Counted from the stretch's first letter, positions 5,290 through 38,555 are shown. The stretch is DNA of 64,000 nt from an uncultured Alphaproteobacteria bacterium (GCA_944390455.1 CALXPU010000005.1:9252-73251), one strand, 5' to 3'. Notes: generated by a model not told the origin, from the sequence alone. Numbers and translations are program-made.

Positions 5290-5661
5290 ATGACTAAAAT
5301 AATTGTTTTCAAAAAAAGAAAAGATTTTTTAAGAGTCGCTCAGGCATTTTATGTTGCAACTCATAACATGGTGCTTCAGGCGGCTCTTAGTTTATCTGAA
5401 ACAGATAATTTATTTGTCGGGTATACTGCCACTAAAAAAATTGGTAATGCAGTTTGTAGAAATCGTAGCAAAAGACGATTAAGAGCTGTTGCGCATGAGG
5501 TTTTGCCTGTTTATGCCTTGCCTAATGTTGACTATATTTTTATTGCACGTAACTCCACGGCATCTTGCCCTTATTCCGAATTAAAAAAAGATACTATTTA
5601 TGCTATAAAGCGCATAAATAAAAACTTCATTCAAGATACTGTTGAAACAACAACTGATTGA
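5290..5661 (+). CDS. rnpA: RNase P protein component
   Basis: 123 aa and basic, with the RnpA RNR motif region ([10 protein letters not shown]). It lies immediately downstream of rpmH. Confidence 0.88.
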
Positions 5662-5677
5662 TTGGATTAGTATTAAT

Positions 5678-5950
5678 ATGTTCAATATCTTTTCTTTTTT
5701 TAGTATTTTTTTTCAAAAAATATCTCTTATCCTTCTAAAATTTTATAAAAATGCAATATCGCCATTTCTTCCGCATGCTTGCCGTTTTACACCAACATGT
5801 TCAGAATATATGATGCAAGCCATCCAAGTACACGGCGTAATAAAGGGAATCTATTTGGGAATTAAACGACTTTTGAGATGTAATCCTTGGGGTGGACATG
5901 GGTATGACCCAGTTCCGCCAAAACACCTAGAAAACAAAGATAAGGGTTAA
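5678..5950 (+). CDS. yidD: Membrane protein insertion efficiency factor YidD. The start is taken at the internal Met MFNIF; the ORF-track start at 5642 overlaps rnpA.
   Basis: YidD signature [45 protein letters not shown]. Confidence 0.85.
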
Positions 5951-6033
5951 CTCTTCACTTAGACTTTACAAAACGTCTTTTTTATATTAGAAAGACAGAA
6001 ATTATTTAATTAAACTCAGGAGAGACACTACAA

Positions 6034-7701
6034 ATGAAAGATGACTTAAGATCTCTGTCTTTGGCAATTTTACTATCCTTCATTGCTATATTTACTGTTA
6101 ATTACTTTTTTGGAATTAATAAAAGCAGTACTGTACAAAAGCAAGTTTCTGAAATAGAACAAGTTGCCAAGAAATTGGAGCAAGTTAACACTGAAAATAA
6201 AGTTATAAAAACAACTCAGGAAATTCTTGCTGAAGACAAACGAATTGACTTTAAAAACGATGCTGTTTCGGGCAGTATTCGTTTGAAAGGCGCTCGGTTT
6301 GATGATTTATATTTAACAAAATACAACGTTTCTCTTGAAGATAATAATTCTAAAATTGAACTTCTAAAACCTGCTAATACCGATAATCAATATTTTGCAG
6401 ATTTGGGATGGCTGTCTTTAGATAAGTCATTAAAATTGCCAACAGCTGATACAATTTGGAACACTAATGATTCTGAATTGACTCCAGGTAAAACAATCAC
6501 TTTAACGTGGAACAATGGTAATGGACTTGAATTTGTTCGAAAAATTTCTTTAGACCAGAACTATCTTTTTACTATTGATGATACAATTTTTAATAATTCT
6601 GATCAAGAAATTGACTTGTTTCCTTATGCTCTTATAAGCCGTAATATAAAAGATTTTGCGCAGACACGTTCTGTCGTTCATGAGGGAATGAATGGTGTTA
6701 TTGATAATACATTGCAAGAATTCAAGTACGCTGATTTAGATGCAAATGACAGTGAAAAATTTGAAACTAAAGGTGGTTGGGCCGGTTTTTCTGATCGTTA
6801 TTGGTTTTCTGCTCTTATTCTTGATGATAATGATAATGTCTCTGTCACCTTCAAAAATAATGGCGATTATAATTATCAAGTAGATTATCTTGGCTCAAGA
6901 TTGATAGTTCCTGCTCATAAATCTCAATCTTACTCTTATCGCTTTTTCTCTGGCGCTAAAGAGGTTAAATTACTTGATTCTTATACAAAAGATAACAATA
7001 TTCCAAAGTTTGATTTAGCTGTAGATTTTGGATGGTACTATTTCTTAACCAAGCCGTTTTTCTATATTCTTGATTTTCTTTATGGTTTTCTTGGTAATAT
7101 GGGATGGGCTATTTTGTTATTTGCCGCACTTTTACGCTTGTGCATGTTTCCGATTGCTAATAAATCGTACACGAGCATGGCAAAAATGAAAGCTTTACAG
7201 CCGAAAATTAATGATATTCGCGCAAAGTATGGTGACAATCAGATGCTTATTCAACAAGCTACTATGGAACTTTATAAACGTGAGAAAATTAATCCAGCAG
7301 CGGGATGTTTGCCTTTATTTATACAAATCCCTGTATTTTTCTCTCTTTACAAGGTATTGAATATCTCTATTGAAATTAGACATGCTCCTTTTATCGGATG
7401 GATTAAGGACTTGTCTGCTCCAGACCCATTAACTTTATCACAAATTCTCCATATCTATGTGCCTGGATTTATTGACATTGGTTTATGGCCGATTTTCATG
7501 GGCTTTACGATGTGGATGCAACAAAAACTAAATCCAGCTCCTGTAAATAAAGACCAAGCAAGAATGTTTGCTTTAATGCCTGTTTTCTTTACATTTATGC
7601 TTGGACATTTTGCTTCTGGTTTGGTTATTTACTGGACGCTCAGCAATATTCTTTCTATCATACAACAGAAAGTTATTATGCATAAAAATGGAGTTGACTA
7701 A
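6034..7701 (+). CDS. yidC: Membrane protein insertase YidC
   Basis: 555 aa with an N-terminal transmembrane segment, a large periplasmic domain and the C-terminal conserved 5-TM core (sequences NPAAGCLPLFIQIPVFFSLY and LVIYWTLSNILSIIQQ). Confidence 0.9.
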   Translation: MKDDLRSLSLAILLSFIAIFTVNYFFGINKSSTVQKQVSEIEQVAKKLEQVNTENKVIKTTQEILAEDKRIDFKNDAVSGSIRLKGARFDDLYLTKYNVSLEDNNSKIELLKPANTDNQYFADLGWLSLDKSLKLPTADTIWNTNDSELTPGKTITLTWNNGNGLEFVRKISLDQNYLFTIDDTIFNNSDQEIDLFPYALISRNIKDFAQTRSVVHEGMNGVIDNTLQEFKYADLDANDSEKFETKGGWAGFSDRYWFSALILDDNDNVSVTFKNNGDYNYQVDYLGSRLIVPAHKSQSYSYRFFSGAKEVKLLDSYTKDNNIPKFDLAVDFGWYYFLTKPFFYILDFLYGFLGNMGWAILLFAALLRLCMFPIANKSYTSMAKMKALQPKINDIRAKYGDNQMLIQQATMELYKREKINPAAGCLPLFIQIPVFFSLYKVLNISIEIRHAPFIGWIKDLSAPDPLTLSQILHIYVPGFIDIGLWPIFMGFTMWMQQKLNPAPVNKDQARMFALMPVFFTFMLGHFASGLVIYWTLSNILSIIQQKVIMHKNGVD

Positions 7702-8345
7702 TGAACGAAGTAAACGCTCAGCAAACAGAAAATTTTTCTCTCGGTCGCGATTTCTTTAATAAAAAATGTACTTTTATGTTAAGTGTTGCAAATCTTAAGC
7801 AACTTCCTAATGGTGATCGTTCGGAGGTTGCTTTTGCTGGGCGTTCTAATGTTGGTAAGTCTAGTTTAATTAACGCTCTATTTGGGCAAAAAAAACTAGC
7901 TAAAACATCTTCAACACCGGGAAGAACTCAACAACTCAATTATTTTAATCTTGATGATAAATTGTATTTAGTGGACTTACCCGGATATGGCTTTGCTAAG
8001 GCTCCTAAGGATATTGTTCGTAATTGGCAACAGCTGATAAATTCTTATCTAGTTGGTAGACCAAATCTCAGACGCGTTTTTCTTCTTATTGATTCAAGAC
8101 ATGGCATTAAGAAAATTGATTCAGAAATTATGGATATGCTAGATAAGGCTGCTGTTACTTATCAAATTGTTTTGACTAAAGTTGATAAAATTAGTGCTGC
8201 TGCGCTTGATAAAATCGTAAAGGAAACGCAGCAGCAACTTAAAGAGCATACAGCTGCTCACGTATCTGTTTTAAAAACAAGTTCTGAAAAAAATTTATTC
8301 TTAGATGAACTAAAAAATGAAATTGCTGAATTAGCAAATTTCTAG
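7701..8345 (+). CDS. engB: Ribosome biogenesis GTP-binding protein EngB/YihA
   Basis: G1 motif GRSNVGKSSLINAL, G3 motif DLPGYG, G4 motif TKVDK. The start overlaps the yidC stop (ATGA). Confidence 0.9.
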   Translation: MNEVNAQQTENFSLGRDFFNKKCTFMLSVANLKQLPNGDRSEVAFAGRSNVGKSSLINALFGQKKLAKTSSTPGRTQQLNYFNLDDKLYLVDLPGYGFAKAPKDIVRNWQQLINSYLVGRPNLRRVFLLIDSRHGIKKIDSEIMDMLDKAAVTYQIVLTKVDKISAAALDKIVKETQQQLKEHTAAHVSVLKTSSEKNLFLDELKNEIAELANF

Positions 8346-8348
8346 TTC

Positions 8349-9329
8349 TTAGGTTATTTCTGTTATACCACGAATGTTTCCGTCTCTAACGATTTGTACC
8401 ACATGAAGTTTGCGGCGCATTTCTTCTATTGTTTTTTCTACATCAATATTAGGTTGAGTTCTCATGATACGTTTTACAAAAGCTTCGTAAGCAGCCGTTG
8501 AACTTTCTGCGTGGATTGTTGCTAAGCAGTTGTCGTGTCCGGATCCCATCAACTCCCAGATTGCTCCGGCATTACTCGTTGAAATTTCTCCGCCGATAAT
8601 TGCATCTGGTGTGAAACGCACAATTAAGTCAATTACCTTTGAGTAGTCCATTGTATTGGTTTGCTCTGTACGTGACAGAACAATATGTACTCTATTGGGC
8701 TGTGGTACATTTAATTCTCGAGTATCCTCTACGGTAATAACTCGCTTATGTATATCTAACAGCTTTAACAGGTTATTCAATAGCGTTGTTTTACCGGTAC
8801 CGGTACCGCCGCTTACCAATATATGGTCACCACGTCGCAAAGCCAATAATAAACGTTCATAAGCATCGTCTGGGTCTTTAATGTTCTTTAAAGGGTTTAT
8901 TTCTTTTAATTTTTTTCCTTGCTCTAGTCCATAGTCTCCAAAACCAAATGCGACATCATCGGTATGTAGACGGATTGTTATTGCAATTCCACCAGTTGCT
9001 GCATCATCCAGATCATATTCAATATTTTTTCCAGCGACCCCAGTGAAACGGTGTCCTCCAGGAATTCTCGCATAGACCACAGGAGATCCATTTATCGGAT
9101 CAAATTCTTGGTCATTTAAATTTGCAATAATATGAAGCAAATTTGTCAGATATTCTCTGGTTAATTTAGGATCTTTGTAATTAACCCATGGAAAAGCTCT
9201 TTTTCCACGCAAGCGTAGCCATATATCTCCCGGATGATTTATGGCGACTTCTTCTATATTTTCTTGTTCATACCAGTATGATAAAGGTCTTAATACCGAG
9301 CATAGAACTTCATCCTCTAGTTTTCCCAT
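8349..9329 (-). CDS. virB11: T4SS ATPase VirB11
   Basis: 326 aa. Walker A LVSGGTGTGKTTLLNNLL, Walker B-like HKRVITVEDTREL, and a His box (GSGHDNCLATIHAESS). It is convergent with engB, with only 3 nt between the two stop codons. Confidence 0.85.
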   Translation of the reverse strand: MGKLEDEVLCSVLRPLSYWYEQENIEEVAINHPGDIWLRLRGKRAFPWVNYKDPKLTREYLTNLLHIIANLNDQEFDPINGSPVVYARIPGGHRFTGVAGKNIEYDLDDAATGGIAITIRLHTDDVAFGFGDYGLEQGKKLKEINPLKNIKDPDDAYERLLLALRRGDHILVSGGTGTGKTTLLNNLLKLLDIHKRVITVEDTRELNVPQPNRVHIVLSRTEQTNTMDYSKVIDLIVRFTPDAIIGGEISTSNAGAIWELMGSGHDNCLATIHAESSTAAYEAFVKRIMRTQPNIDVEKTIEEMRRKLHVVQIVRDGNIRGITEIT

Positions 9330-9397: not shown

Positions 9398-12300
9398 TTA
9401 GAATAGTTCAATATCTCCAGAAATTTCTTCTTCGCTCTCCGGAGCTTCTGTTACTGAACCATCTGCAGCCGGCGGAGGAATTGCTCCTACATTTTTGCGT
9501 GGTTGCTGTTGGTTATTTTGGCTATTACCACTATCTAACAAAGGAGTGCCACCATTGTTACTCGTATTGTTTGCATTATTTGTTTGAGCTTGGTTGCCTA
9601 AGATAACCTTCTGACTGCCTTGAGAATTGTTCTTTTCTACTGTAGAGGTTGTGGTTCCACCACCGCCACCATAGAATGTCTCATTTACCAATCCTCCTTC
9701 GCCACCTCCCGGTACGGCTGTAGCTACACCGCGTTGAATATCTTTTGTGCTTCTCAACCATAAATCTTGCATCGGATAAATTATTACTCTTGTACCCGCT
9801 GGAATATACGTTACTGGCTGTATTTGAGATTTACTATCAATAATCTCTTGTAAAATTTGATCCATTTTTTCCATAAATTCTTGTCTTGCATCTGATGCGG
9901 CTTGTTGTTTTGAAGTTTCCACTTCTCCGGTACTATCTTCGTCAGCGGCCATCATATATGTAATTGCTGAAGTTACCATAGTACCAACAATCGGCAATGT
10001 GTATTTCTTCACTAACTGTTCATCAACATAACCCAATGCACCACCACCACGTCCTTGTGCATCGCCAGTTTGAGTTCTTCCCGGTGAAAGTAAAAATGCT
10101 ATACCATCTGGGCGGATAATTCTCTCCCAAGATATGTCTAACTTTACACCACCACTTGTATTATCAAATCTTGCCTCTGTATCTGTTGTTTGCAGACCGC
10201 CAATTATTCTACTACCAGCTGGAATAATTACGTTACGTCCAGAATCACCATAAATATTTCGTTCAACTATCGCTGTTACCGGAGCGGAACCTAAGGATAT
10301 TAATGAACGCGCCAGAACTGCCGGTATTGGTTTATCTCCCGTAATCATATTATCCATATTCACTCTTAATGTTGACACCGTACGTTTCATGCCCCAGTCA
10401 TCTTGCCAACCGGTATATGAAGCTGCATCATATCCTGGTTCTATTTTGGCGGCAACGAGTGTTCTTCTTCGTTCATCTTGAAGTTGTGATAATATTGCAG
10501 CTCGTCTTGGATTATACCTTCCACCAGGGCCAACACCTCCGCCAGGACCGACATTGGTTATTTCATCACCACTGCTATATGGATTTATGGTTGCTCCTGT
10601 TGCTATCTGTTTCCACCAATTTGCATTCATCCCTTTGCTATCTGCTGAGGCACGTTGTTTTTCAAAATCACCAACTTTATTTCCTTCATTATCGAATATT
10701 TCTCCTTTTTCGTTGGCGCTACCAACAACAGCACCTGATTCATCTATTACTTTATTATTACTGTATACATCTCCAATATAACGTCCTCCTGGGGTTACAG
10801 CTATTCCCACAACTTGATAATCTTCTTTAGTTTCAAGAGCGGCTTGCTCTTCCGGACTTAATGTTTCTTCTATCTGTTCTTCTGTTTTGGAAGCAACATT
10901 TTCAATTTCAGTATTTATACTATTTTCTTCTTGATTTTCGTCTTCAATCTCAGTTTCAGATGTTTTTACTTCTGATGCCTCAGGCGTTTTTTCAACAATC
11001 TTTTCCTCTTTGGGTTCCGATGGACGGCGATAGTATTGTAATTTTCCAGCTTGCCCCAATACATCTCCTGAAGGAGAAATTACTCTACCTTCTTCATCTA
11101 TTTTTCCTATTTCTATGTTTTTTATATTTACAACACTACCATCTAGGTTCAAGTGCCCTATTATTTGATTATCTTTGTTCCTTATTTCATAATCTCTTAG
11201 ACCGCGCCCTATTAGATTTTGTTTCTTATCTAAAACAAATCCTTGATAAATAGATCCTTTTATTTCTCCCATTATGCTATATACTCGACCATTCTTGGCG
11301 ATATATCCTATGGTTTTTCCTTCATTATCATATACATATAAATCATACAAAGCATAACCATTGTCGCCTTTTTTAGTTTTCACTTCTCCGGTATGGAGTA
11401 CATAACCTAAATTTTCACCATTATCTGAGACAACACTGCCATCTGGTTTTACGCGCCCTAAATAAATATTATTCGCATCAAAGGCTACCGTGTATTGGAA
11501 AGGTACACCTATGTTCTTTCCATCCTTAGAGCGGATACTGCCGTCTAAATCTATAGTAGCAATTTGTATGCCGGAGGTATCTACAACATTTCCATAAAAA
11601 TTTGTATATCCCAGTATTTTATTATCAAATCCCATTACAGACATATACGGAATTATTTGCCCGATAATTTCTTTTTGAGCATTTCTTACTTTTCCATTGC
11701 TATCTATACACCCTAAATTTTGATTATTATAATTAAGGACATTACCTGATGAATTGCTTACGCCAATTGTATCTCCCCCTTCTCCATTTACTGCACGGGG
11801 TTGTACAACATAACCTATTACTTCTTCTGTTTCATTTACGACCTGCTTATTTGCTAATATCATACCCAAATAAGCATCTTTAGATGTTCTGGCTTCACCA
11901 CTATCTGATACAATACCTATGACTTTGCAATCTGGTGAAATAACAGTCCCCATCTCTAAGGCTTTTCCATATAAAGCTCCCATGTTATCCAGAACATATC
12001 CATTTGAACTTATTTTTCCAATTATTTCCGTTCCCTTGGTTACTTGTCCCGTCAGGCTATTTGCCCCCAGATAATCGCCATTAATACTTACACTGATTGG
12101 AGCATTGCTTGCACGTCCATAATTTTGCGAAAAACGTTCTGATATTCCAACTACATTATTATCCGGTAAGATTTTTGCAAAAACTTTATTTTGTGAATTT
12201 ACCACCAAATTTCCAGAATTAACAACACCTTGCATTTCTCCTTCAAAATTTGTAATAAATTTACTTTCCACCATTTTTCCGAGTAACTTATTATTTTTAT

Positions 12301-13759
12301 CTAAGAATATTCCGTTTCCCGTAAATTTAGCTATTTCATTTAATGAAGGATTTTCGGTTTTGCCTTCGTTGGACGTAAAGGACAATGTCGTGCCATCATC
12401 TGTATAAATTCCACCTTGCTTAATATTTATACCGCTAATATCCCCATTTTCATCAAAGATATATCCATATGGTGATATTTTATAGGCTATTCCATTTGCA
12501 CTCAGGCCTGTATTTATTCCACTTATACCTAAAAACTCATTGTTATTGTTAAAGCACAAATTATCTGCCAGCGTTTTTCCTATTACTCTGCCATTATTAT
12601 CTACTGCATCATTTTGACGTATTGTACCTAAATCTACACCTTCTAGAGAAACTATTTTACCGCCAACTGCAGCATTTGCCTTTAAATTTCCTAAATAATC
12701 AAATACAGGTCCTTCTGAATTTATTATACCTATGACATTGCCTTTTTCATCAATAACTTTACCAGATGCACCGATTGTACCGATTACATTTCTTTTACTT
12801 AAAACTTTGCCATCTGCTGTAATTCTTCCTAAATATTTTCCGTCAAGCGTATTGGCTGTTGCAGCCATATTAACGGTAAATCCGATTGTATTTCCATCTT
12901 TGTTTATTACTCTATTTCCATTTACGGCACGTGCAACAATTGTTCCCTTATTTACAACTTCGCCATTATAGCTAACTACGCCGATATATTGTCCATTATT
13001 ATTAAAAGCATAGCCATTATCTACAACATGCCCTATGGCTTGACCTTCTTTATTGTACACATATCCATTTGCATGGATGTTACCAATAATATTTTTTTTC
13101 AAATCCATCACTTTTCCATCTGGGGCTATGCTTCCCAGATATTTACCTACTGATGATATTACCATTTTGGAGGTAATCAATTTTCCCAGCAATCTAATTT
13201 TATTTTCAGTTCCGGCAAGAGAATATACATAACCACTAGCTGTCACATAGCCTGTATTTTCACCTGAAAGATTGTAGAATTTTCCATCTCCTGATACGCG
13301 ACCCACTACTTGTCCTGCGTCATTGTATACAAGGTTTGGCGATACAGACGCGCCTAGAATATCGTAATTATCATTTACAACCAAACCATTTGGGAGAACT
13401 TTACCGATTAAGCTATCATTTGCAGAAGTAACAGAGCCATCGTTATTAATTTTTCCCAAAATACTGTTATTGTACGAGATAGCTATACCTTGAGGAACAA
13501 CTCCACCGATAAGATTGTTTTCATTATCGTATACAAAACCATCTGCAGTAATGTATCCTATCAGTTCATTGTTGCTGTTGATAACTGAACCGTCTGGTAT
13601 TACTTTTCCAATCAAGTCTCCATTAAAATTAAGTGCGCTAATATCCGCAGCCATTGCACGCAAACTTATGGCTACAAATAAAACAATCAATCTTATTATT
13701 TTGCTCAGTTTTCTTATGCTTTTATGCAAATCAATTCCTCCGGTTTTGCGCAACTTCAT
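9398..13759 (-). CDS. virB10: Giant VirB10/TrbI-family T4SS protein (1453 aa). It has an N-terminal transmembrane anchor, about 860 aa of a degenerate 17-residue tandem repeat, an acidic E/K-rich linker, the TrbI/VirB10 C-terminal domain, and a further 104-aa G/N/Q-rich tail.
   Basis: The C-terminal region (residues ~1085-1349) carries VirB10 hallmarks: RVNMDNMITGDKPIPAVLARSL, IPAGSRIIGG, GRGGGALGYVDEQL and IPAGTRVIIYPMQDL. A transmembrane helix (IIRLIVLFVAISL) sits near the N-terminus. The repeat consensus is x-x-D-G-x-[IV]-V-D-x-x-G-x-[IV]-I-G-x-[AV]. Confidence 0.8.
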   Translation of the reverse strand: MKLRKTGGIDLHKSIRKLSKIIRLIVLFVAISLRAMAADISALNFNGDLIGKVIPDGSVINSNNELIGYITADGFVYDNENNLIGGVVPQGIAISYNNSILGKINNDGSVTSANDSLIGKVLPNGLVVNDNYDILGASVSPNLVYNDAGQVVGRVSGDGKFYNLSGENTGYVTASGYVYSLAGTENKIRLLGKLITSKMVISSVGKYLGSIAPDGKVMDLKKNIIGNIHANGYVYNKEGQAIGHVVDNGYAFNNNGQYIGVVSYNGEVVNKGTIVARAVNGNRVINKDGNTIGFTVNMAATANTLDGKYLGRITADGKVLSKRNVIGTIGASGKVIDEKGNVIGIINSEGPVFDYLGNLKANAAVGGKIVSLEGVDLGTIRQNDAVDNNGRVIGKTLADNLCFNNNNEFLGISGINTGLSANGIAYKISPYGYIFDENGDISGINIKQGGIYTDDGTTLSFTSNEGKTENPSLNEIAKFTGNGIFLDKNNKLLGKMVESKFITNFEGEMQGVVNSGNLVVNSQNKVFAKILPDNNVVGISERFSQNYGRASNAPISVSINGDYLGANSLTGQVTKGTEIIGKISSNGYVLDNMGALYGKALEMGTVISPDCKVIGIVSDSGEARTSKDAYLGMILANKQVVNETEEVIGYVVQPRAVNGEGGDTIGVSNSSGNVLNYNNQNLGCIDSNGKVRNAQKEIIGQIIPYMSVMGFDNKILGYTNFYGNVVDTSGIQIATIDLDGSIRSKDGKNIGVPFQYTVAFDANNIYLGRVKPDGSVVSDNGENLGYVLHTGEVKTKKGDNGYALYDLYVYDNEGKTIGYIAKNGRVYSIMGEIKGSIYQGFVLDKKQNLIGRGLRDYEIRNKDNQIIGHLNLDGSVVNIKNIEIGKIDEEGRVISPSGDVLGQAGKLQYYRRPSEPKEEKIVEKTPEASEVKTSETEIEDENQEENSINTEIENVASKTEEQIEETLSPEEQAALETKEDYQVVGIAVTPGGRYIGDVYSNNKVIDESGAVVGSANEKGEIFDNEGNKVGDFEKQRASADSKGMNANWWKQIATGATINPYSSGDEITNVGPGGGVGPGGRYNPRRAAILSQLQDERRRTLVAAKIEPGYDAASYTGWQDDWGMKRTVSTLRVNMDNMITGDKPIPAVLARSLISLGSAPVTAIVERNIYGDSGRNVIIPAGSRIIGGLQTTDTEARFDNTSGGVKLDISWERIIRPDGIAFLLSPGRTQTGDAQGRGGGALGYVDEQLVKKYTLPIVGTMVTSAITYMMAADEDSTGEVETSKQQAASDARQEFMEKMDQILQEIIDSKSQIQPVTYIPAGTRVIIYPMQDLWLRSTKDIQRGVATAVPGGGEGGLVNETFYGGGGGTTTSTVEKNNSQGSQKVILGNQAQTNNANNTSNNGGTPLLDSGNSQNNQQQPRKNVGAIPPPAADGSVTEAPESEEEISGDIELF

Positions 13760-16700
13760 CTAATACATATCCGGAAACCTGATTTCGGATATTTACATAT
13801 GAGCCATTACTCTTCAAATATCCGATTTTCCCGTTTGTTAGACTATATATTGTTCCGTTTGAGGCTAGTCTTCCTAAAAACTTTCCATCATTCCCTAATA
13901 TATTAGCACCAATTTTATAGCTATGTCCCAATATTTTTCCATTGTTATCTACAACTAAATTTGATGATATAATTTTTCCGATTACAGATCTTTCTTTATT
14001 CAGCACTTTTCCTTCTGCATTTACAAAGCCGACAACTTGATCTTCCTCATTGATTACAATATCATCTTCAACAAGTTCACCTATTAAAAAGCCCTTATCA
14101 TTAACGGCTTGTCCAGAATTTAAAATATGGCCTATTTTAGTATTTTCCGTAGAAATGATGCTACCATCTGCAACAACTTGTCCTATTATTTTTCCTGAAT
14201 AATTGAGAACAACACCTCTTTTTACAACATTATAGTTTTTATTTGATGTTCCGCCAGGAAGGATTGTGGTGACAATGTTATCTTCATCGTCAATAATATC
14301 ACCAAGTGCATTTAAGTATCCTCTTGTCTTTCCTTGAATATCTATAACAAAGTCTTCTTTTATAACTTCACCTATTATTTGTTTGTTTTCATCCAGAATA
14401 TGCCCTTCTGAACCGACATTACCACTGACGTTTCCATCTACATCTATTACTTTACCACTTTTGCTCACATAACCTAAATATGAACCGTCATAGCCAATAC
14501 CAACGCCTGTTTTTACCAAACCGCCTTTGTATTCTCCTTGTTTATCAAACATTCTCCCTTTGCCGTCAATATACCCTAATTCGGTTCCCAAAACGTCGAT
14601 TACTTTTCCGGCGTCATTAGCTATGCCAATATAATTTCCGTTAAAGTCAACCACGGTGCCTTTATTAATTATTTTTCCGGCTTTCTTAGAATAGAATGAG
14701 TTGCCTTCGTATACAAATTTATCAACAGCTATTCCTTTTTGATTATAGACATAACCATCCGCAAATAAATGCCCTATCGTATTTCCATTTGCATCTACGA
14801 CAATGTTCTTTTCTGGCAGTAACACGCCTTTTACTTCCAGTTTAGGATTTACTAAGTATTTATTTAGCAAGACCTTAGTATTTGGAATGACGGTTTGATT
14901 ATCATATTTGAATGTTGATAAATTATTTATGAAATCGCCATTTACACCGAAAGCCTGAGTTTTATCCATAACCTGACCTATGATGAAGCCATCTTTATTC
15001 AATATTTCTCCATCTAAGTTTGCGCATCCGATTGCCTGTAAACCATTTTTGACAGTACCGTCTTGATTTAGGGGGCCCATCATCTCCCCGCTATAATATA
15101 ATCCATAGCTCGGTTCAAAGACTTTTCCTATTAGTTTTCCGTCTTGGTTTAATACCCCACCATCTGGATTTACACATCCAACATAGCCACCTTCGTCATT
15201 GCGGACAAAGCCGTCATATCCAGCTTTACCAATGATATTACATTTTTCATCTCTTACGATGCCTACTTTTGCTATATCGCCAACATAGTTACCATCTTTG
15301 TCAACAATTGTGCGGTCAAACATCATTCTATATTCTGTTTCTTTTCCATCTTTTTTTACTTTAGCATCTCTGTCTACATATCCCAGATGTTGACAGCCCC
15401 ATCCTACAGCCATTCCTCCAATCACCGTTTTGCCTATTATTTTTTCTCCTTCTATGGATTTTATTAGTGAATTTGGCAAAATTTTACCGACGATTTCTTC
15501 TTTGTTATTAATAACTTCACCTTTGTTATTAATTATTCCCAGACTATAACCGGCAGGAGAAATTGCTATCATGTCTTTTTTAACAACAGTTCCTATTCTT
15601 ACGCCTCGAGAACTGATAACATTACCATTCTCATCAATGTAACCTATAACGATACCATTTGCGTTATAAACTTTTCCGTCCTCTCCGATATACCCTATCA
15701 CATTTCCATTTTCATCTACGGCTAAATTTGAGTAATCGCCGACTTGACCTACAATTTTGCCATTTTCATCTACGGTAAAATCAACCATTCCTCCTACTTT
15801 ACCGATTATGTTTCCTTTACTATCCTTTACACTACCATCTTCTTGAACAGTACCTATTACATTGCCATTTAAATCTCTGGCAATTCCGTTTTCATCAACA
15901 TAACCGATAACATTTCCAGCTTCATCTAATATAGCTTTTCTGGAAATAACTTTTAAGTTTCCGTCTCCATTTTCAGCCAATCGGCCAATAACTTCGCCAT
16001 TGCTTCCATAAACATTTCCATCTTCAGCAACAAATCCTATGACTTTTCCATTATTGCCAATGACTTTTCCTTTGTCGTCCACATAGCCAATAACATTACC
16101 ATCTTTATCTAATACTACTTTGGCAAAATCACCGGCCTTTCCGATTATATTACCATTTATATCGTTAATACTTCCATCTTCCCCTAAATATCCGAGAAGT
16201 TTTCCATCAAAATCGCGGACTGTGCCATCTTCATCCACATATCCTATAACATTGCCATCTTTATCATAGGCTAATTGACGATTTATGTCTGCTTTGCCGA
16301 GAACTTCTCCGGTTACGCCGATGATATTTCCATTTTCATCCATAAAACCAATTAGTTCACCATTTTCTCCATAAACTTTTCCGTCGTCTTCAACATAACC
16401 GATAACATTACCATCTTTATCCAATGCTAATGTCTTTGTATCTCCGGTTTTACCAATTTCTCTTCCATAAGCGTCTATAATGCGCCCATCTTTAGTGGCT
16501 TTTCCCAGCAAATTACCCTTAAAATCGTAGACATTTCCGTCTTTATCAACGTAACCGATTACTTTGCCATTTTTATCGTATGCCAATGTTCCCTTTTTAT
16601 CTACATTACCGATGACTTCATTAGTGTTATTTAAAATATTACCATTTTCATCAACATAACCGATAACATTGCCTTTGAAATCTTTCACTGTTCCGTCTTT

Positions 16701-19700
16701 ATCTACAAATCCTATAACTTTTCCATTTTTATCGTAAGCTAAATTTTTTGCTCCGCCAACTTTACCAATAATTTTACCATTTTTATCAAGAACATTACCT
16801 TTTTCATCAACTTTTCCGACAATGTTACCGTTTTCATCAATTACATTGCCGTTTTCATCAACATAACCGATAATATTGCCGTCTTTATCATATGCCAGCT
16901 TTACACTTTTGCAGGCTGTACAAATAACTTCACCTACAGCTTTTACTTCATTATCTTTGGTTACATAACCAATTAATTTATTATCTGAACTAAAAGCAAA
17001 ATTATTTTCTTTCATATAGCCGATAACATTATTTCCATTGTCTCTAAGCGTTTTCTTATCTGCGTCTAACTTGCCAATTACATTTTCTTTGGCACCCAAA
17101 ACATCGCCTTTTATATCGACAATACCAATAATTTTATCTTCGTCGCCTTTAACATAGTTTTGCGCATCAATATAGCCAATAACATTTCCTTCTGATTTTT
17201 GGACTACATTTAATAATTCCCCTGTTGTACCAATCAGTAGTCCTTTATTATCAACCACATCTCCATTTTTGTTAGAACCTAAAGTTTTGCCACTAAAGTT
17301 TTTCACAACGTTGTTCTTATCTAAATAACCGATTACAAGCCCTTGCTTATTTTTTATAATTTTTTTTCTAACGCAAGTACGACCAATAATTTTGTCACCA
17401 GCCTTAATTACGTTTCCATTTTTATCTATAAAACCGACTAATTTGCCATTTTCATCTACTACACGACCATTTTCTACATAACCGATAATGTTGCCGTTTT
17501 TATCTGTTGCTACTTGTCTATATTCTCCGGCTTTTCCGATGACTCTTCCGTTTTTATCCAGAATACTTCCGTCTTCAGCCATTCTTCCTATCAGATTTCC
17601 TTTAAAATCTTTAACTGTTCCATCTGGTGTAACATAGCCGATGACTTTACCATTTTTATCATATGCTAATCTTTTGAAGTTCCCTGCAACACCTAACTTT
17701 TCACCGCTTGAAGCAATTATATTTCCGTTTTTATCAACGACACCTATAATTTTTCCATCACAATTTATGACGCGTTTTTTCTCGTCTATATAGCCAATAA
17801 ACACACCTTGATTGTTGAAGGCAAGCTCTTTTATGCCACCGACTTTTCCAATTATTTTGCCATCTTTATCAACGACATTTCCTGACGAATCTTTTTTACC
17901 AATAACGCTTCCGCCACAACCTTTAACAGTACCATCCGTATCAACATAACCAATAAATTTACCGTTTTTATCGTATGCAATTTCTCTTGAAGTTCCGGCT
18001 TTTCCGATGATTTTTCCATTTGTTCCTATTATTTGCCCTTTGTCATCTACATAACCTAAAAGAGCGCCATTTTTACCGATGACACGACCTTTATCATCAA
18101 CAATACCAATAACATTACCCTTTTTATCAAAGGCAACCGTTGCATAGTTACCAGCCTTTCCGATTTTTTGGCCATTTTTACCAATAATTTCCCCTTTATC
18201 GTTTACTTTTCCGATAACATTGCCTTCAAAATCAATAACATTTCCGTCATCATCTATATAACCTATAGGCTTTCCATCTTTTCCTAAGGCTATTCTTTTT
18301 TTGTTGCCATTTGTATCAGCCTGTTTGGTACTTATGATATTCCCGTTTTTATCAACATTACCAATATGTTTGCCATTGTGATCAAAAACACGACCTTGCT
18401 CATCTACATATCCAATGACTTTTCCATTTTTATCCAAAGCTAATTTGGCATACGCTCCAGCCTTTCCGATGATTTTTCCGTTTTTATCTACAATATTACC
18501 ATCTTTATCTACTTTTCCGATAACATTTCCCTTAAAATCTTTAACCGTGCCATCTTTGTCAACGTAACCGATAACATTGCCATCTTTATCATACGCCAAT
18601 CTTCTGCTTACGCCAACTTTTCCAATAACATTTGATTTATTTTTATCTTGATCAAATTTAACAACTTTTCCGTTTTCATCTATATAACCTATAGCCTTAC
18701 CATCTTTATCATAGACAATCTTGCGACTTTCTCCATTTGTACCTATTTTCTCTTTAGCTATTTTGTATACGTTACCGTTTTCATCAACATATCCAACAAC
18801 ATTTCCGTCTTGGTCAACAACACTGTTATCTGGCATAACAACGCCTAAAACATTGCCATTTTCGTCAACAACAATATTTCCTGATGATGTCACCTTTCCG
18901 ATAACATTGCCATTTTCATCGACAACCTCTCCGTTTTCATTTAATCGTCCAATGATTTTTTTAGGGTCATTAATATCTACAACTGTTCCATCTGGTAATG
19001 CACGACCAATAATTTTGCCATTTTTATCATATACAAATCCAGCCTCAACGGCTTTTCCAATGATTTCACCGTTGCTATTTACTATCGTTCCATCAGGCAG
19101 AGCCTTGCCAATAACTTCTCCTTGTAAATCAACAACAGTTCCGTCTGTTTTAACATAGCCAATAATATTGCCATCTTTATCGTATGCCAATTTCATATTT
19201 TGGGCAACGCCGATGATATTACCATCCGAATCAACAATCAATCCGTCTTCATTAACTTTACCGATAATGTTACCGTCTTTGTCATGAACATTTCCGGCTT
19301 CATCAATGTAACCTATAATTTCACCATTAGGCCCTATAGCTAGACGATGAGCCCCGATCCCCCCATCATCACCAATGGAGCAACCACTTCCAGCACTACA
19401 ATTTTGTTGGTTGTCTTCTGGGTATACTGCACTGCCTCTAATGCTTACTTCCTCAGATTTGGCACTTGATTTATCTAATCTGGTTTCATACCATATTATT
19501 TTGAAATTATTTTGAACATTCCCCGGTAAGTGTGGCGCCCAAGTTATTAAAACATTGCACGTTTCATCACCTCGTAAATCACGGTTTCTACATTTATCTC
19601 TAAAATCAAAACCATCTTCCGTTTCTTCTACAAGCTCAACCCTTTCTATATGTATGCTTTCACTACCATCCGTTCCTATCGTTAAAACGCTTTGATTTTG

Positions 19701-20009
19701 AACATCAACCCCCAGAACAAATTTGTTCATATTAATTTGTGCTGGCGTTACTTTTATTGGCTTGCTCTTTCCTTCACCTGTTGTTGCTTCGGTATCTATA
19801 AATATTGGACCTGCATCTGCACCTATTTCAGGTAAGATATTCTGATTTTCCACAAAATCAGGCGCATCCTCTTCTGGGTTATAAACTTCTGTATCAGAGG
19901 ATATTACAAGCAAACCAAACAAAAAGAAACAGAATGCGATAATTCCTATCGTAAAAATTATCTTTCGAGTTTTTCTCTCATATTCTTCAAACCGAGTATT
20001 TTCACTCAT
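13731..20009 (-). CDS. 2092-aa bitopic repeat protein between virB9 and virB10. It has an N-terminal transmembrane segment and is then made almost entirely of tandem 17-residue 'DxDGxVIGYVDENGNV'-type repeats. It resembles the N-terminal half of the adjacent VirB10 but has no TrbI domain.
   Basis: A single hydrophobic helix (IIFTIGIIAFCFFLFGLLVI) lies near the N-terminus. Period-17 repeats such as LPDGTVVDENGNVIGKA and DKDGNVIGYVDENGNVI run for well over 100 units. The repeats at residues ~230-1330 are very regular; the more C-terminal ones are degenerate. The gene overlaps the virB10 start by 29 nt and the virB9 stop by 4 nt. Confidence 0.7.
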   Translation of the reverse strand: MSENTRFEEYERKTRKIIFTIGIIAFCFFLFGLLVISSDTEVYNPEEDAPDFVENQNILPEIGADAGPIFIDTEATTGEGKSKPIKVTPAQINMNKFVLGVDVQNQSVLTIGTDGSESIHIERVELVEETEDGFDFRDKCRNRDLRGDETCNVLITWAPHLPGNVQNNFKIIWYETRLDKSSAKSEEVSIRGSAVYPEDNQQNCSAGSGCSIGDDGGIGAHRLAIGPNGEIIGYIDEAGNVHDKDGNIIGKVNEDGLIVDSDGNIIGVAQNMKLAYDKDGNIIGYVKTDGTVVDLQGEVIGKALPDGTIVNSNGEIIGKAVEAGFVYDKNGKIIGRALPDGTVVDINDPKKIIGRLNENGEVVDENGNVIGKVTSSGNIVVDENGNVLGVVMPDNSVVDQDGNVVGYVDENGNVYKIAKEKIGTNGESRKIVYDKDGKAIGYIDENGKVVKFDQDKNKSNVIGKVGVSRRLAYDKDGNVIGYVDKDGTVKDFKGNVIGKVDKDGNIVDKNGKIIGKAGAYAKLALDKNGKVIGYVDEQGRVFDHNGKHIGNVDKNGNIISTKQADTNGNKKRIALGKDGKPIGYIDDDGNVIDFEGNVIGKVNDKGEIIGKNGQKIGKAGNYATVAFDKKGNVIGIVDDKGRVIGKNGALLGYVDDKGQIIGTNGKIIGKAGTSREIAYDKNGKFIGYVDTDGTVKGCGGSVIGKKDSSGNVVDKDGKIIGKVGGIKELAFNNQGVFIGYIDEKKRVINCDGKIIGVVDKNGNIIASSGEKLGVAGNFKRLAYDKNGKVIGYVTPDGTVKDFKGNLIGRMAEDGSILDKNGRVIGKAGEYRQVATDKNGNIIGYVENGRVVDENGKLVGFIDKNGNVIKAGDKIIGRTCVRKKIIKNKQGLVIGYLDKNNVVKNFSGKTLGSNKNGDVVDNKGLLIGTTGELLNVVQKSEGNVIGYIDAQNYVKGDEDKIIGIVDIKGDVLGAKENVIGKLDADKKTLRDNGNNVIGYMKENNFAFSSDNKLIGYVTKDNEVKAVGEVICTACKSVKLAYDKDGNIIGYVDENGNVIDENGNIVGKVDEKGNVLDKNGKIIGKVGGAKNLAYDKNGKVIGFVDKDGTVKDFKGNVIGYVDENGNILNNTNEVIGNVDKKGTLAYDKNGKVIGYVDKDGNVYDFKGNLLGKATKDGRIIDAYGREIGKTGDTKTLALDKDGNVIGYVEDDGKVYGENGELIGFMDENGNIIGVTGEVLGKADINRQLAYDKDGNVIGYVDEDGTVRDFDGKLLGYLGEDGSINDINGNIIGKAGDFAKVVLDKDGNVIGYVDDKGKVIGNNGKVIGFVAEDGNVYGSNGEVIGRLAENGDGNLKVISRKAILDEAGNVIGYVDENGIARDLNGNVIGTVQEDGSVKDSKGNIIGKVGGMVDFTVDENGKIVGQVGDYSNLAVDENGNVIGYIGEDGKVYNANGIVIGYIDENGNVISSRGVRIGTVVKKDMIAISPAGYSLGIINNKGEVINNKEEIVGKILPNSLIKSIEGEKIIGKTVIGGMAVGWGCQHLGYVDRDAKVKKDGKETEYRMMFDRTIVDKDGNYVGDIAKVGIVRDEKCNIIGKAGYDGFVRNDEGGYVGCVNPDGGVLNQDGKLIGKVFEPSYGLYYSGEMMGPLNQDGTVKNGLQAIGCANLDGEILNKDGFIIGQVMDKTQAFGVNGDFINNLSTFKYDNQTVIPNTKVLLNKYLVNPKLEVKGVLLPEKNIVVDANGNTIGHLFADGYVYNQKGIAVDKFVYEGNSFYSKKAGKIINKGTVVDFNGNYIGIANDAGKVIDVLGTELGYIDGKGRMFDKQGEYKGGLVKTGVGIGYDGSYLGYVSKSGKVIDVDGNVSGNVGSEGHILDENKQIIGEVIKEDFVIDIQGKTRGYLNALGDIIDDEDNIVTTILPGGTSNKNYNVVKRGVVLNYSGKIIGQVVADGSIISTENTKIGHILNSGQAVNDKGFLIGELVEDDIVINEEDQVVGFVNAEGKVLNKERSVIGKIISSNLVVDNNGKILGHSYKIGANILGNDGKFLGRLASNGTIYSLTNGKIGYLKSNGSYVNIRNQVSGYVLDEVAQNRRN

Positions 20010-21973
20010 TGTATTCTGACCACACTACAAAATATACCATTACGCCCTAGTTGACTGCAAATATTATCTCCTTCTTCCAGAGATTTAACCGGTCCAACAC
20101 GCAAATGAAAAACTTCTTTTCCTTGTCCGTCTGCCGGTGTATCTACGGAATAGAATGGTTGATATTTGCCTAGTGTTGCTGAATAATTCTTTGAAATATC
20201 ATTCCATAATTTCTCTAAATTATTTACATCTTTATCCGTTCCTAACTCTATAGAAATATTACTTTCATCGGTATTTGCGAATACTTTTCCTTCTCTAAAT
20301 TCTTTGAGCAAAGCTTCTGTTTCAGCTGAAACAACGGAATTATGCTTTTCTAAATCATTATCTTTAGGCGTAATCAACACCGGACTAGAGTTATTACTTG
20401 AGTTACCGATTTTTGACGCACCATTAGGTATCTGTATATTTTGTTGTGTATCTTTTTGATACGTAACAGATGCATTTGGCTTATCATTATATTGAGGCGT
20501 TACAAATTCAGCACCATTTGCTTTTATATCATACTGCCCCGTTAGATTTTCTTGCTTTTGTTCAACTTCTGGAGCTGCAACAAAAGTTTTTGCTTTTGGT
20601 AAGGTATCTAATAATGTTGTTTCCTCACCAGCGGCTTGTCCTTGAGAAGTTCCTTTGGAAGCGGCATTATTTGTTTCTGCAACTACAGGTTTAACTTGAG
20701 CACCATTTGTTGTACCTTTCTTTCCACTAATCATATCCTCATAACTCAATCCATTAGAATCTGTTGATGAAGAGTTGTCTTTAGTTTCGGCTGGCCCAAA
20801 GAATGAGCTTATGCCAAAGAAAGAATCTTTTTGATTATTGTTATTCTCCGCCTTCTTTCCATAGACGTCCTCATAGTCTTCAGAATTTTGTTCTTCATTT
20901 TCCGTAGTCTTTTGATAACGTTTTGCTTGTAAATCCCATTCATTTGTTTTTGCATAAACAGTATTTTCCAAACCATCCGAATCTGCTCGTCTTAGTTTTA
21001 AGCATACAATTCTTTTACCGCTACGAAGAACCATATCGCCCATACCTTCTACGATTATCAAACGGTTGTTTGGACCTGCCGTTCTAAAACCTACCGGAGT
21101 TTCTGAGCGCTCTACGATTAAGGTTACTATCGGTCTTTGGTTAGATGTAAGAGCTTTATCTCCTAAATCAATATATGTAAAAATATTATCTCTCCAGACG
21201 CGCTCCGGTGCTATTACTATATCATCAGGATTTGGAACATATACCTCAATATCAAAACGAAACTTTGTTGGATCTACCGGTATTTTTTCAATCCAGTCTT
21301 CCTTTTGTAAATCTCTTGTAAAGGTCGCATCTGCACTGCTGCCATTTTGGCCATAACTATTTGCATTTATATGTCCACCGCTATTATTGCTACCAATTAT
21401 TGCTGAACCATTTGCGTTTTGACGTCTTTTAACAACTTCTATATCAATAATAGCGTTGGTTATTCTATCTGTATTAACGGTTTCACTTTGAACATAAAAA
21501 ACATATTTATTACCCGAACGTCCGAAAACAATCATATTGGTATCCACACCAACAAATTGAGAAGAATCCGGATAAACCATTAAGCTTGAAGGGCCTTGAA
21601 TTTCTGCATTAAAAGATTGCCCATCACCGATATATACATTCTCTATAACTTCCCAATTTGGGAAATTAATCAATGTATACATTCCTTCTCTAACTCTTAC
21701 TGGTAAAACCAACTCAGGCGTCCAATAGTATTTTGTATATCCAGGACGCGTCTGTCCCTCTCCCATATGCTGCAAAGGATCTTTCCACGCGCTTTGCATC
21801 ATTCCAAGAGATCCTACACCCCCTAAATAATTCAAATTTGTGGCAGCGTAGTTACCTTGACTTTGGTCTGCATTCTGATCAAGATTATCTTTTGTTACTT
21901 GTGCTTGTACGGCAGGAACCAAAACACCTGCTGATATTAATATTACGGATAAAATGTTTGTAATTTTCATCAT
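20006..21973 (-). CDS. virB9: T4SS outer-membrane core protein VirB9, extended to 655 aa. It has a signal peptide, a VirB9 domain of about 300 aa, a N/Q/S/T-rich low-complexity spacer of about 280 aa, and a C-terminal SPOR-like domain.
   Basis: Signal peptide MMKITNILSVILISAGVLVPAVQAQ. The gene sits between virB8 and virB10. The C-terminal ~75 aa (ISIELGTDKDVNNLEKLWNDISKNY...GKEVFHLRVGPVKSLEEGDNICSQLGRNGIFCSVV) fit the two-lobed SPOR pattern (xVQlGaF...lyRVrvGPf..a...c..L...g..c.vv). Confidence 0.7.
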   Translation of the reverse strand: MMKITNILSVILISAGVLVPAVQAQVTKDNLDQNADQSQGNYAATNLNYLGGVGSLGMMQSAWKDPLQHMGEGQTRPGYTKYYWTPELVLPVRVREGMYTLINFPNWEVIENVYIGDGQSFNAEIQGPSSLMVYPDSSQFVGVDTNMIVFGRSGNKYVFYVQSETVNTDRITNAIIDIEVVKRRQNANGSAIIGSNNSGGHINANSYGQNGSSADATFTRDLQKEDWIEKIPVDPTKFRFDIEVYVPNPDDIVIAPERVWRDNIFTYIDLGDKALTSNQRPIVTLIVERSETPVGFRTAGPNNRLIIVEGMGDMVLRSGKRIVCLKLRRADSDGLENTVYAKTNEWDLQAKRYQKTTENEEQNSEDYEDVYGKKAENNNNQKDSFFGISSFFGPAETKDNSSSTDSNGLSYEDMISGKKGTTNGAQVKPVVAETNNAASKGTSQGQAAGEETTLLDTLPKAKTFVAAPEVEQKQENLTGQYDIKANGAEFVTPQYNDKPNASVTYQKDTQQNIQIPNGASKIGNSSNNSSPVLITPKDNDLEKHNSVVSAETEALLKEFREGKVFANTDESNISIELGTDKDVNNLEKLWNDISKNYSATLGKYQPFYSVDTPADGQGKEVFHLRVGPVKSLEEGDNICSQLGRNGIFCSVVRIQ

Positions 21974-22762: not shown

Positions 22763-22951
22763 TTAGCTGATAGCCTTAAACCAATCCGGTAAAGTTTTGG
22801 GCAACTCTACTTCAATGCAAGCACATGGTGATAATTTTAATTCGTAGACATCTTTACCAATACCTACAGGCTCTGGCTCATAGTAGCTACCTACTAAGTT
22901 ACAAGCGGCTAATATTAATACTGCAGAACCAATAATTATTGCTTTATACAT
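22763..22951 (-). CDS. Small lipoprotein in the VirB7 position (candidate VirB7)
   Basis: 62 aa with a lipobox (ILAAC), located between the two virB8 paralogs upstream of virB9. The assignment rests on position, size and lipobox only. Confidence 0.35.
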   Translation of the reverse strand: MYKAIIIGSAVLILAACNLVGSYYEPEPVGIGKDVYELKLSPCACIEVELPKTLPDWFKAIS

Positions 22952-37598: not shown

Positions 37599-37955
37599 CT
37601 AGCTGCCCAGGCTACTATGTGATACTGTATTCATATAAGTATCTTTGAATTCTGTTTGTAATTTTGCGTGACTTCCTGTGAAGTAGTCAATAATCGCACC
37701 AGTTGCAGAGAGCATAAACAAGCTGATAAAAATATATCCTAGGTGCTTAAAATTGATTTTTCCACTTATCGCTAAAAATGTAAACATAACGATACCAAAA
37801 CAAGATATTGCGTATGCAAATACACGCAACTGTGATGCGAAAGATATCGTTTTTTGCTTTAGCGACGCAAATACTCCTGCCGCCATTGCATCACCACTCA
37901 TTAATACAATTACAGCGATACACATTATGCAGAAAAACATACTTTTTTTCGTCAT
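37599..37955 (-). CDS. virB2: VirB2/TrbC-family pilin (paralog 3 of 3 in transcription order)
   Basis: 118 aa with a signal peptide (...DAMAAGVF) and two hydrophobic helices, the VirB2 architecture. There is an 11-nt gap to the preceding paralog. Confidence 0.6.
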   Translation of the reverse strand: MTKKSMFFCIMCIAVIVLMSGDAMAAGVFASLKQKTISFASQLRVFAYAISCFGIVMFTFLAISGKINFKHLGYIFISLFMLSATGAIIDYFTGSHAKLQTEFKDTYMNTVSHSSLGS

Positions 37956-37966
37956 CTCATCATCTC

Positions 37967-38290: not shown

Positions 38291-38402
38291 CTCAAAATCT
38301 CCCCTATAATTATTTGTATTATATCACAAATTCATAAAAATATCTAGAAAAAAATGCGCAGCATCACTTACGATATCATGTTGTTTTTACTGTGTTTATT
38401 TG

Positions 38403-38428
38403 CTTGTAACAAAAACTTCACACTCTAG
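38403..38428 (-). promoter_or_regulatory. Conserved 23-bp motif (plus strand cttgtaacaaaaacttcacactc) upstream of virB2 paralog 2. It is a putative promoter or operator; the minus strand gives a -35-like TTGTTA, 17 nt, then TAAAAA.
   Basis: A near-identical copy sits at 39016..39038, upstream of virB2 paralog 1. This is a direct sequence comparison. Confidence 0.45.
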
Positions 38429-38535: not shown

Positions 38536-38555
38536 TTTTCTTTATTTGTTGGTTA

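Follow-up and report, generated by a model that had tools for sequence, protein, structure and literature searches.

A giant beta-flower-repeat VirB10 probably divided between two adjacent genes in gut and rumen Alphaproteobacteria

Are two long, seemingly overlapping open reading frames (ORFs) of a virB-type operon two genes, or the pieces of a single one? The question is raised by a 64,000-nucleotide stretch of DNA from an uncultured Alphaproteobacteria bacterium (GCA_944390455.1 CALXPU010000005.1:9252-73251; hereafter, the window), in which ORF A (Table 1) is followed, in a different frame of the same strand, by the longest virB10 ORF (9398..13759, minus strand, 1453 aa; ORF B). The pair is flanked by virB9 and virB11, an order kept in relatives. 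VirB10 is the subunit of type IV secretion systems (T4SSs) whose single chain connects the inner membrane to the outer one (PMC6120205) and which responds to the use of ATP by VirD4 and VirB11 (PMC2653234). The original prediction, made from the sequence of the window alone, saw in A and B two halves of one ancestral repeat protein, produced either by a frameshift split or by a duplication. We consider it probable, at roughly three chances in four, that a giant VirB10 with beta-flower repeats, part of a chromosomal, P-type, rvh-like T4SS, underwent one ancient and now fixed division, of which A and B are the two products. The system belongs to a clade of uncultured Alphaproteobacteria of gut and rumen, and the two-gene VirB10, conserved across this large clade, is a new form of a known component.

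Complementary architectures of the two ORFs and of their relatives

Both ORFs are built of the same repeat type, as had been recognised from the sequence: Pfam places PF21785, the 'five-fold beta-flower' family, on 21 stretches of A (E=7.2e-142, 464 bits with a cutoff of 38) and on 7 stretches of B (E=7.3e-60, 200 bits). The TrbI domain was found by Pfam in B only, not in A, and its profile retrieves ComB10 (2bhv, 4e-30), CagY (4e-14) and Xanthomonas VirB10 (5e-13). The cytoplasmic tail and the inner-membrane transmembrane helix are not on this TrbI chain, the anchor being carried by ORF A instead. A hydrophobic window of transmembrane grade (a run of about 22 residues) occurs at the N-terminus of 89/89 A-type proteins, as well as in 84/84 relatives that keep everything in one chain, here called unsplit.

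For the N-terminal module (N-module) of A, AlphaFold predicts a long helix at aa 5-37, a disordered linker and an immunoglobulin (Ig)-like sandwich at aa 85-195 (predicted local distance difference test, pLDDT, ~90-96), for which Foldseek returns ASH/PapD-like folds (CEP192 ASH, 7e-7; HYDIN PapD-like, 3e-6). When the N-modules of A-type and unsplit proteins are aligned, Y10, P89, G100, F134, C140, C151, W157, P159 and W173 are invariant, together with the CxxC motif. The succession of an ASH/PapD-like domain and a conserved CxxC directly past the VirB10 anchor was also observed in the N-termini of proteins P0027-P0120, and we know of no report of such a domain in VirB10. The N-module profile also matches more than 9,000 giant proteins with multiple ASH domains in a library of 1.8 billion proteins. 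At the opposite end of A, the last 330 aa were modelled with AlphaFold 2 (AF2) as 18 beta-hairpins (36 strands) and a short final helix (pLDDT 86.5; predicted template modelling score, pTM, 0.81), and a fold search of the PDB with this model gave no meaningful match (best TM score 0.17).

B begins with a hydrophobic segment too, and to that extent the original prediction of an N-terminal transmembrane helix in each protein stood; however, the segment of B resembles a cleavable signal peptide. It has a 10-residue uncharged core followed by AMA-ADIS, and 76/76 B-type N-termini are 26-36 aa long and combine a basic n-region with a short h-region and with small amino acids at positions -3/-1 (mostly AxA), adjoining the conserved mature sequence (D/E)I(S/T)A(L/I)(N/D)F in the B-type proteins of the 76 loci. 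A transmembrane-like hydrophobicity window is reached in just 29/77 B-type proteins. The pattern looks like a substrate of signal peptidase I and not like the transmembrane helix of A, and cleavage is predicted.

A protein search with A as the query returned three architectures. The A-type homologs (P0001-P0026; 1,155-1,581 aa) have the N-terminus of A, lack TrbI and all end in ...EVA(K/R)NRRN, such that the architecture and C-terminus of A are matched by them and by 63 complete copies from genome loci. The B-type homologs (P0053 and others) start with the signal peptide, continue with (Q/A)EITAIDFNGDLIG and the repeats, and end with TrbI; B is colinear with them and with the 76 genome loci. 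The unsplit giants, 84 protein clusters of 1,930-2,609 aa among P0027-P0120 (for example, P0027 of 2,290 aa and P0033 of 2,609 aa), join an N-terminus homologous to that of A and a C-terminal TrbI in one chain. Their TrbI is 45-52% identical to that of B, and the unsplit protein has no internal signal peptide.

The two states were compared in their genomic context as well. The order virB8-lipoprotein gene-virB8-virB9-A-B-virB11 is found in the window, in a 258-kb human gut contig (L005) and in the metagenome-assembled genome (MAG) GCA_017475935.1 (L006/L007). The A-B pair is present at 76 genome loci, at 39 of them as virB9-A-B. At every informative locus among L010-L089, B directly follows A, and virB9 precedes the pair wherever the flank extends that far. 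Where a locus covers the whole of A, as 63 do, neither gene is truncated. These loci were taken from the best 80 in a scan with the TrbI alignment (L010-L089), among which only split loci occur; they come from gut MAGs of human, mouse, ruminant and deer, which carry the labels 'uncultured Alphaproteobacteria', 'Acetobacter sp. 46_36', 'Proteobacteria bacterium CAG:495' or 'Azospirillaceae'. The unsplit order is virB8-small ORF-virB8-virB9-one giant virB10-virB11 at L008/L009 and L090, and virB9-one giant virB10-virB11 at L091; virB9 thus has the same place in split and unsplit relatives. The giant VirB10 of this sister gut clade has the N-module, repeat type, TrbI and operon position of A plus B, but in one ORF. 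No genome examined had a complete VirB10 beside A, and of the N-module profile searches for shorter intermediates made of the N-module and TrbI, one yielded contig-end fragments and the other was dominated by giants with multiple ASH domains.

The split, the position of the A stop (after ..EVA[KQ]NRRN) and the signal peptide of B are kept in 76/76 readable species genomes, down to 49% TrbI identity. In a neighbor-joining tree of TrbI (77 B-type and 84 unsplit sequences), as in one of the N-module (89 A-type and 66 unsplit sequences), split and unsplit proteins are separated by a single bipartition recovered in 100/100 bootstraps, and the mean within-group TrbI distance is similar on the two sides of that branch (0.45 vs 0.47). 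By these sequence comparisons, the split is one ancient, fixed event. The notion of two halves of one ancestral protein is upheld by the unsplit relatives, found in the same context and with the A module and TrbI at their two ends, but the timing, mechanism and reversibility attached to it are not.

The junction between A and B

The 29-nt overlap between A and the longest virB10 ORF, which the original prediction had pointed out, exists only if the ATG at 13759 is the start of virB10. The coordinates and the different frames of the two ORFs are correct; the overlap as biology does not hold up, for this ATG has no Shine-Dalgarno sequence and is stop-blocked in relatives. The ATG arises from the A codons GAT GAA (D-E), at which the more distant orthologs have CCT/CCG GAA. 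It is present in only some of the close relatives, being absent or stop-blocked in L014, L019, L021, L022 and others, and in close relatives a stop may follow straight after its position (ATG AAG TAG in L014; ..CCA TGA in L019).

Read in the frame of A, the junction is GAT GAA GTT GCG CAA AAC CGG AGG AAT TGA T TTG CAT AAA. It was compared among 80 loci from species-representative genomes fetched with the TrbI alignment, 76 of which have a readable A-B junction. All A-type proteins end in ..EVA(K/Q/R)NRRN followed by the stop, and the C-terminal N-R-R-N of A doubles as the ribosome-binding site of B: CGGAGGAA is conserved just 5' of the A stop, within the last codons of A, at nearly all 76 loci. 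The consensus ..GAAGTnGCnAAnAAyCGGAGGAAy-stop-(0-4 nt)-TTG/ATG/GTG describes 71/76 species genomes. The start codon, mostly TTG, lies no more than 7 nt past the A stop in 72/76 (0-4 nt in 71/76), while the other 4/76 loci have a spacer of 15-25 nt with its own ribosome-binding site. Within the clade of the window, TTG with a 1-nt spacer is found at every locus except L027 (ATG) and L039 (GTG). As the conserved start abuts the A stop, the 29-nt overlap is probably an artefact of choosing the longest ORF, and comparison with the orthologs makes TTG 13729 the likely start of virB10 here. For annotation, this means that gene callers make virB10 too long by taking an upstream ATG that is probably spurious; the N-terminal half is labelled just 'DUF3659 protein'.

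The frame of B relative to that of A varies among species (start offsets of 0-5 nt), and hence there is no conserved product of frameshifting or readthrough. The sequence of the junction contains no homopolymer or slippery run, and neither a terminator nor a promoter above chance was found at it. With a Shine-Dalgarno sequence inside the tail of A, stop and start 1 nt apart and no such terminator or promoter, translational coupling of A and B is plausible, as had been proposed, though through the adjacency of stop and start and not through an overlap. The orthologs turned out to be two independently conserved genes, the outcome named with the original prediction as speaking against a split, yet they abut instead of being well separated.

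Routes to two genes

A recent frameshift or nonsense mutation in one gene, or an assembly error, which slippage might revert or programmed frameshifting might bypass to give one polypeptide, is what a raw look only would suggest, with two long ORFs of the same strand and repeat type overlapping in different frames. We leave it next to no probability. The identical A protein is found on 14 contigs from several metagenomic samples, where the B gene is called with the same length and position, and the junction DNA of one locus compared (L001) is identical to that of the window; the split is therefore not an assembly error. Moreover, conservation across the 76 species genomes at the TrbI divergence given above, the lack of a slippery run and the differing frames of B and A all speak against such a lesion, and in a fused product the conserved signal peptide of B would be buried. 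The recent interruption with reversion by slippage, as first envisaged, is contradicted by the same conservation. A private lesion, a pseudogene and an assembly artefact were ruled out by the comparative data, that is, by independent start signals and intact parts across species.

How A and B map onto the unsplit proteins was assessed by profile-profile comparison (hhalign over the whole length and in 120-column blocks, in both directions and with two independent subsets; the margins are reproducible but small). The unique ends are complementary and have no competing placement, with A 1-240 falling on unsplit 1-225 and B 1141-1500 on unsplit 1807-2083. In single-sequence BLASTP and sliding-window searches of A and B against unsplit proteins, the repeats give near-equal placements and only the N-module and TrbI map uniquely. 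Between the ends, the first ~110 mature residues of B best match unsplit ~360-500 (155-194 vs 115-149), B 181-360 maps to unsplit ~960-1160, and the remainder of B is colinear to the end; the irregular part of A maps to unsplit ~321-700, with a weaker match at ~890-1006.

These placements bear on a tandem duplication followed by neofunctionalisation, in which A would be a TrbI-less virB10 paralog working as an independent accessory, e.g. an inner-membrane periplasmic scaffold, and B alone would be the functional VirB10. DotF, beside DotG in the Dot/Icm system, offers a functional parallel for an accessory of this kind. Such an origin would account for the blocks of A and B that each best match the same unsplit part (~378-500) and for a combined length of A and B (~2,550-3,700 aa) above that of most unsplit proteins, and the repeat arrays are evolutionarily plastic. 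We nevertheless regard it as unlikely: B carries no copy of the tail, transmembrane helix and PapD-like domain and A carries no TrbI, so that the unique ends are strictly complementary; no complete VirB10 accompanies A in any genome seen; and the stop/start coupling with a Shine-Dalgarno sequence inside A in 72/76 species suggests matched synthesis. A simple duplication of the N-terminal module, one of the two origins first suggested, fails because B lacks the module of A and the unique ends are complementary. Nor does a single ancestor of more than 3500 aa, the other suggestion, agree with the data, as the unsplit relatives do not exceed 2,609 aa, many split pairs add up to ~2,550-2,650 aa, and the A of the window was enlarged by a lineage-specific expansion of repeats.

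The polarity could also be the reverse, the two-gene state being ancestral and the giant VirB10 of the sister clade resulting from a gene fusion. This is compatible with the one bipartition and the similar depth on its two sides (TrbI 0.45 vs 0.47), and rooting with outgroups gives no direction, but we find it improbable. Anchor and TrbI are in one chain in the VirB10 of Rickettsia (481 aa; PMC2653234), in CagY, TraF and TrwE, and in Xanthomonas VirB10 (PDB), such that an earlier fission would be needed too, and the signal peptide of B and the conserved tail of A would have to vanish without trace. Since anchor and TrbI share a chain in all other VirB10 proteins characterised and a fusion would require that extra, earlier fission, we infer from the architecture of other VirB10s that the change was a fission rather than a fusion.

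Several points weigh against the ancient division of one VirB10 into A and B. The tree itself does not give polarity: the outgroup root (ComB10, CagY and Xanthomonas VirB10, with TrbI segments taken from PDB alignments and too distant to root the tree) falls on the branch between split and unsplit proteins with weak support, and with the outgroups included both clades are monophyletic in just 16/100 bootstraps. In the arrays, B 601-840 maps to unsplit ~510-715, out of order, and A 1501-1620 and B 61-180 of the clade of the window both best match unsplit ~378-500 (scores 150 and 161). The gene callers of the public assemblies picked the ATG for virB10; cleavage of the signal peptide of B is read from a sequence pattern only; and the interaction of A with B is one that we infer. 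The shared match at ~378-500 and the scrambled order make a one-step, in-place stop and new start insufficient. While the division may have come about by an in-place stop and a new start or by a tandem duplication and then complementary loss, the block comparisons make it likely that the route included a partial duplication with complementary loss, or a later shuffling of beta-flower units.

The arrays differ in length among lineages. The A of the window is ~930 aa longer than distant A-type proteins through expansion of a 52-aa (156-nt) super-repeat, and A measures ~2,000-2,250 aa in the clade of the window versus ~1,040-1,400 aa in distant split genomes. Another subclade expands B instead, which reaches 2,081-2,366 aa in L043, L046, L047, L060 and L089. 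In the DNA, the repeat families have a spacing of 156 nt and copies 60-79% identical, and Tandem Repeats Finder reports one array of 2.6 copies at 78%. Recombination of cagY is driven by near-identical direct repeats; with copies just 60-79% identical, nothing points to a recombination switch of the cagY kind here. At one of the split loci (L045; CAYJKS010000009.1, 2100-6402), the B-type gene appears broken into an N-terminal ORF of 205 aa and a TrbI ORF of 1,194 aa, which could reflect either a genuine secondary break or faulty assembly.

A proposed two-chain VirB10 and its setting

If a single VirB10 was divided in this way, A kept a short cytoplasmic tail and the inner-membrane helix, followed in the periplasm by the PapD-like domain and an extended array of hairpins, and B kept further hairpin arrays and the TrbI barrel, having gained a Sec-type signal peptide in place of the anchor. 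The two genes would be co-transcribed and their translation coupled, with the ribosome-binding site of B in the last four codons of A and the B start at TTG 13729, such that both chains could be delivered together. A would be anchored in the inner membrane, and its PapD-like domain and arrays would lie in the periplasm; B would be exported, its TrbI joining VirB9 and VirB7 in the outer-membrane core and its arrays pointing inward. A non-covalent association of A and B in the periplasm, probably through the beta-flower arrays, would restore the link from inner to outer membrane, and the two would then work together as a two-chain VirB10. A further proposal is more tentative and has, in our view, less than even odds: that the envelope-spanning function of VirB10 is performed by two non-covalently joined chains, an inner-membrane PapD/beta-flower protein and a secreted beta-flower/TrbI protein, with the copy number or symmetry of the inner- and outer-membrane parts uncoupled and with a new periplasmic superstructure of the T4SS.

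The locus shares TrbI and the virB9/virB11 position with the canonical VirB10/TrbI proteins (A. tumefaciens VirB10, pKM101 TraF, R388 TrwE, Xanthomonas VirB10 and H. pylori ComB10), and the TrbI profile of B matches TrwE, TraF and Xanthomonas VirB10 at 1e-7 to 5e-13. Canonical VirB10, however, is a single chain of ~380-480 aa with a cytoplasmic tail, a transmembrane helix and a Pro-rich linker, whereas here A carries the tail and the helix along with an additional PapD-like domain, the N-terminus of B is a predicted signal peptide, and the linker gives way to hairpin arrays of ~900-1,900 aa. CagY of the H. pylori Cag T4SS (1,927 aa) is likewise very large, with long repeats before a TrbI-like domain and a size near that of the unsplit relatives (1,930-2,609 aa). 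Its repeats are unrelated to the beta-flower hairpins of this locus (PF21785, modelled as all-beta), and CagY is one chain, as are the unsplit relatives, while here there are two, with the anchor and some of the repeats on a separate gene.

In the rvh T4SS (PMC2653234), two virB8 genes flank a small ORF and are followed by virB9-virB10-virB11, as here, and both systems are chromosomal. The rvh virB10 of Rickettsia is a single gene of 481 aa and virD4 lies past virB11 (PMC2653234), where no virD4 is present here; besides, both virB8 copies are on the same strand here and there are three virB2-like genes. The multiple virB6, virB4 and virB9 paralogs of rvh are not matched by this locus, which has one virB4, one virB9 and no VirB6 assigned by Pfam among the large membrane ORFs upstream.

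The beta-flower fold, of no known function, received its name in 2023 on the basis of AlphaFold models (PMC10584680). The family is marked by hairpins that close into discrete 4-, 5- or 6-fold 'flower' barrels. The proteins described (PF21784/PF21785; Durairaj et al., 2023, PMC10584680) share the hairpin repeat and its [DNEQ]xxG turn with this locus, but each is a small single domain of ~96 residues and some are lipoproteins (PMC10584680), in contrast to the dozens of hairpins found here, in arrays of thousands of residues within a T4SS core subunit. The core of a secretion machine would be the first cellular context for this fold, and a search of the literature on beta-flower repeats in VirB10 or T4SSs, on an RF32 T4SS and on split VirB10 found nothing on the system. 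A large clade of gut and rumen Alphaproteobacteria in which the anchor half is stably apart from the outer-membrane half provides a natural test of covalent continuity; if true, the two-chain VirB10 amounts to an experiment of nature on whether 'energy sensing' depends on an unbroken polypeptide. Thousands of beta-flower residues per subunit pair would, if this is so, make up a new kind of periplasmic T4SS superstructure in abundant gut commensals.

Table 1. Features of the divided virB10 locus, in coordinates of the window.
Feature	Position	Strand	Description
virB11 ATPase	8349..9329	-	PF00437, E=2.3e-26; directly 3' of virB10
ORF B (VirB10-C)	9398..13729	-	1443 aa from TTG; signal peptide, irregular beta-flower arrays, acidic linker, TrbI, low-complexity tail
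TrbI/VirB10 C-terminal domain of B	9755..10345	-	aa 1139-1335 (numbered from the ATG); PF03743, E=6.9e-28
Signal-peptide-like N-terminus of B	13649..13729	-	MHKSIRKLSKIIRLIVLFVAISLRAMA, then ADISALNFNG; 27 aa
TTG, probable true virB10 start	13727..13729	-	1 nt past the TGA of A; positional homolog of the start in 72/76 genomes
ORF A (VirB10-N)	13731..20009	-	2092 aa; cytoplasmic tail, transmembrane helix, PapD-like domain, CxxC, beta-flower hairpin arrays; no TrbI
A tail EVAQNRRN and TGA stop	13731..13757 (TGA 13731..13733)	-	conserved C-terminus
GGAGG Shine-Dalgarno for virB10	13737..13741	-	within A codons R-R; 7 nt 5' of TTG 13729
Upstream in-frame ATG	13757..13759	-	makes the apparent 29-nt overlap; no Shine-Dalgarno; probably unused
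Beta-flower hairpin arrays of A	13758..19352	-	PF21785/PF21784; includes 52-aa (156-nt) super-repeats at ~15600-19300
ASH/PapD-like Ig domain of A	19425..19757	-	aa 85-195; common to the N-terminus of unsplit giant VirB10s
Transmembrane anchor of A	19899..19967	-	~aa 15-37; 22-residue uncharged run IIFTIGIIAFCFFLFGLLVISS; AF2 helix 5-37; Kyte-Doolittle 2.89 (19-aa window)
virB9	20006..21973	-	CagX domain (Pfam); overlaps the start of A by 4 nt; 5' of A
Small ORF between the two virB8 copies	22763..22951	-	62 aa; lipobox LILAAC-N

Upstream (5') of virB9 lie a virB8, the 62-aa lipoprotein ORF, a second virB8, five ORFs, virB4 and three virB2-like genes, with one virB4 and one virB9 within the 64-kb window. 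The lipoprotein ORF is probably VirB7, and a small ORF is kept at this position between the virB8 copies in split and unsplit relatives. Downstream, virD4 was not found after virB11, the next genes (5290-9329 region) being a GTPase gene, yidC, rnpA and rpmH on the other strand; L005 has the same neighbours, which places the T4SS on the chromosome, at a site that is fixed within the clade.

VirB9 is long (655 aa), and its residues 581-653 have a weak C-terminal SPOR-like match, ranked below the Pfam cutoff (peptidoglycan-binding; PF05036, E=3.6e-4, 21.2 bits vs a cutoff of 21); a faint SPOR match is also on record for the VirB9 ortholog of L006. The five consecutive ORFs between virB4 and virB8 (23875-34713, minus strand; 1793, 458, 232, 727 and 387 aa) occupy the place of the virB6 paralogs in rvh-type systems. 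Pfam gave no match for four of them and just two sub-cutoff matches for the 727-aa ORF, with no VirB6 match in any of the five; the 1793-aa ORF has conserved counterparts in relatives, of 1324-1415 aa in L005/L006. On the minus strand at 37599-38933 there are three VirB2/TrbC-like pilin genes in tandem, namely 38556-38933 (3e-10), 37967-38290 (6e-8) and 37599-37955 (5e-4, the last below the Pfam cutoff).

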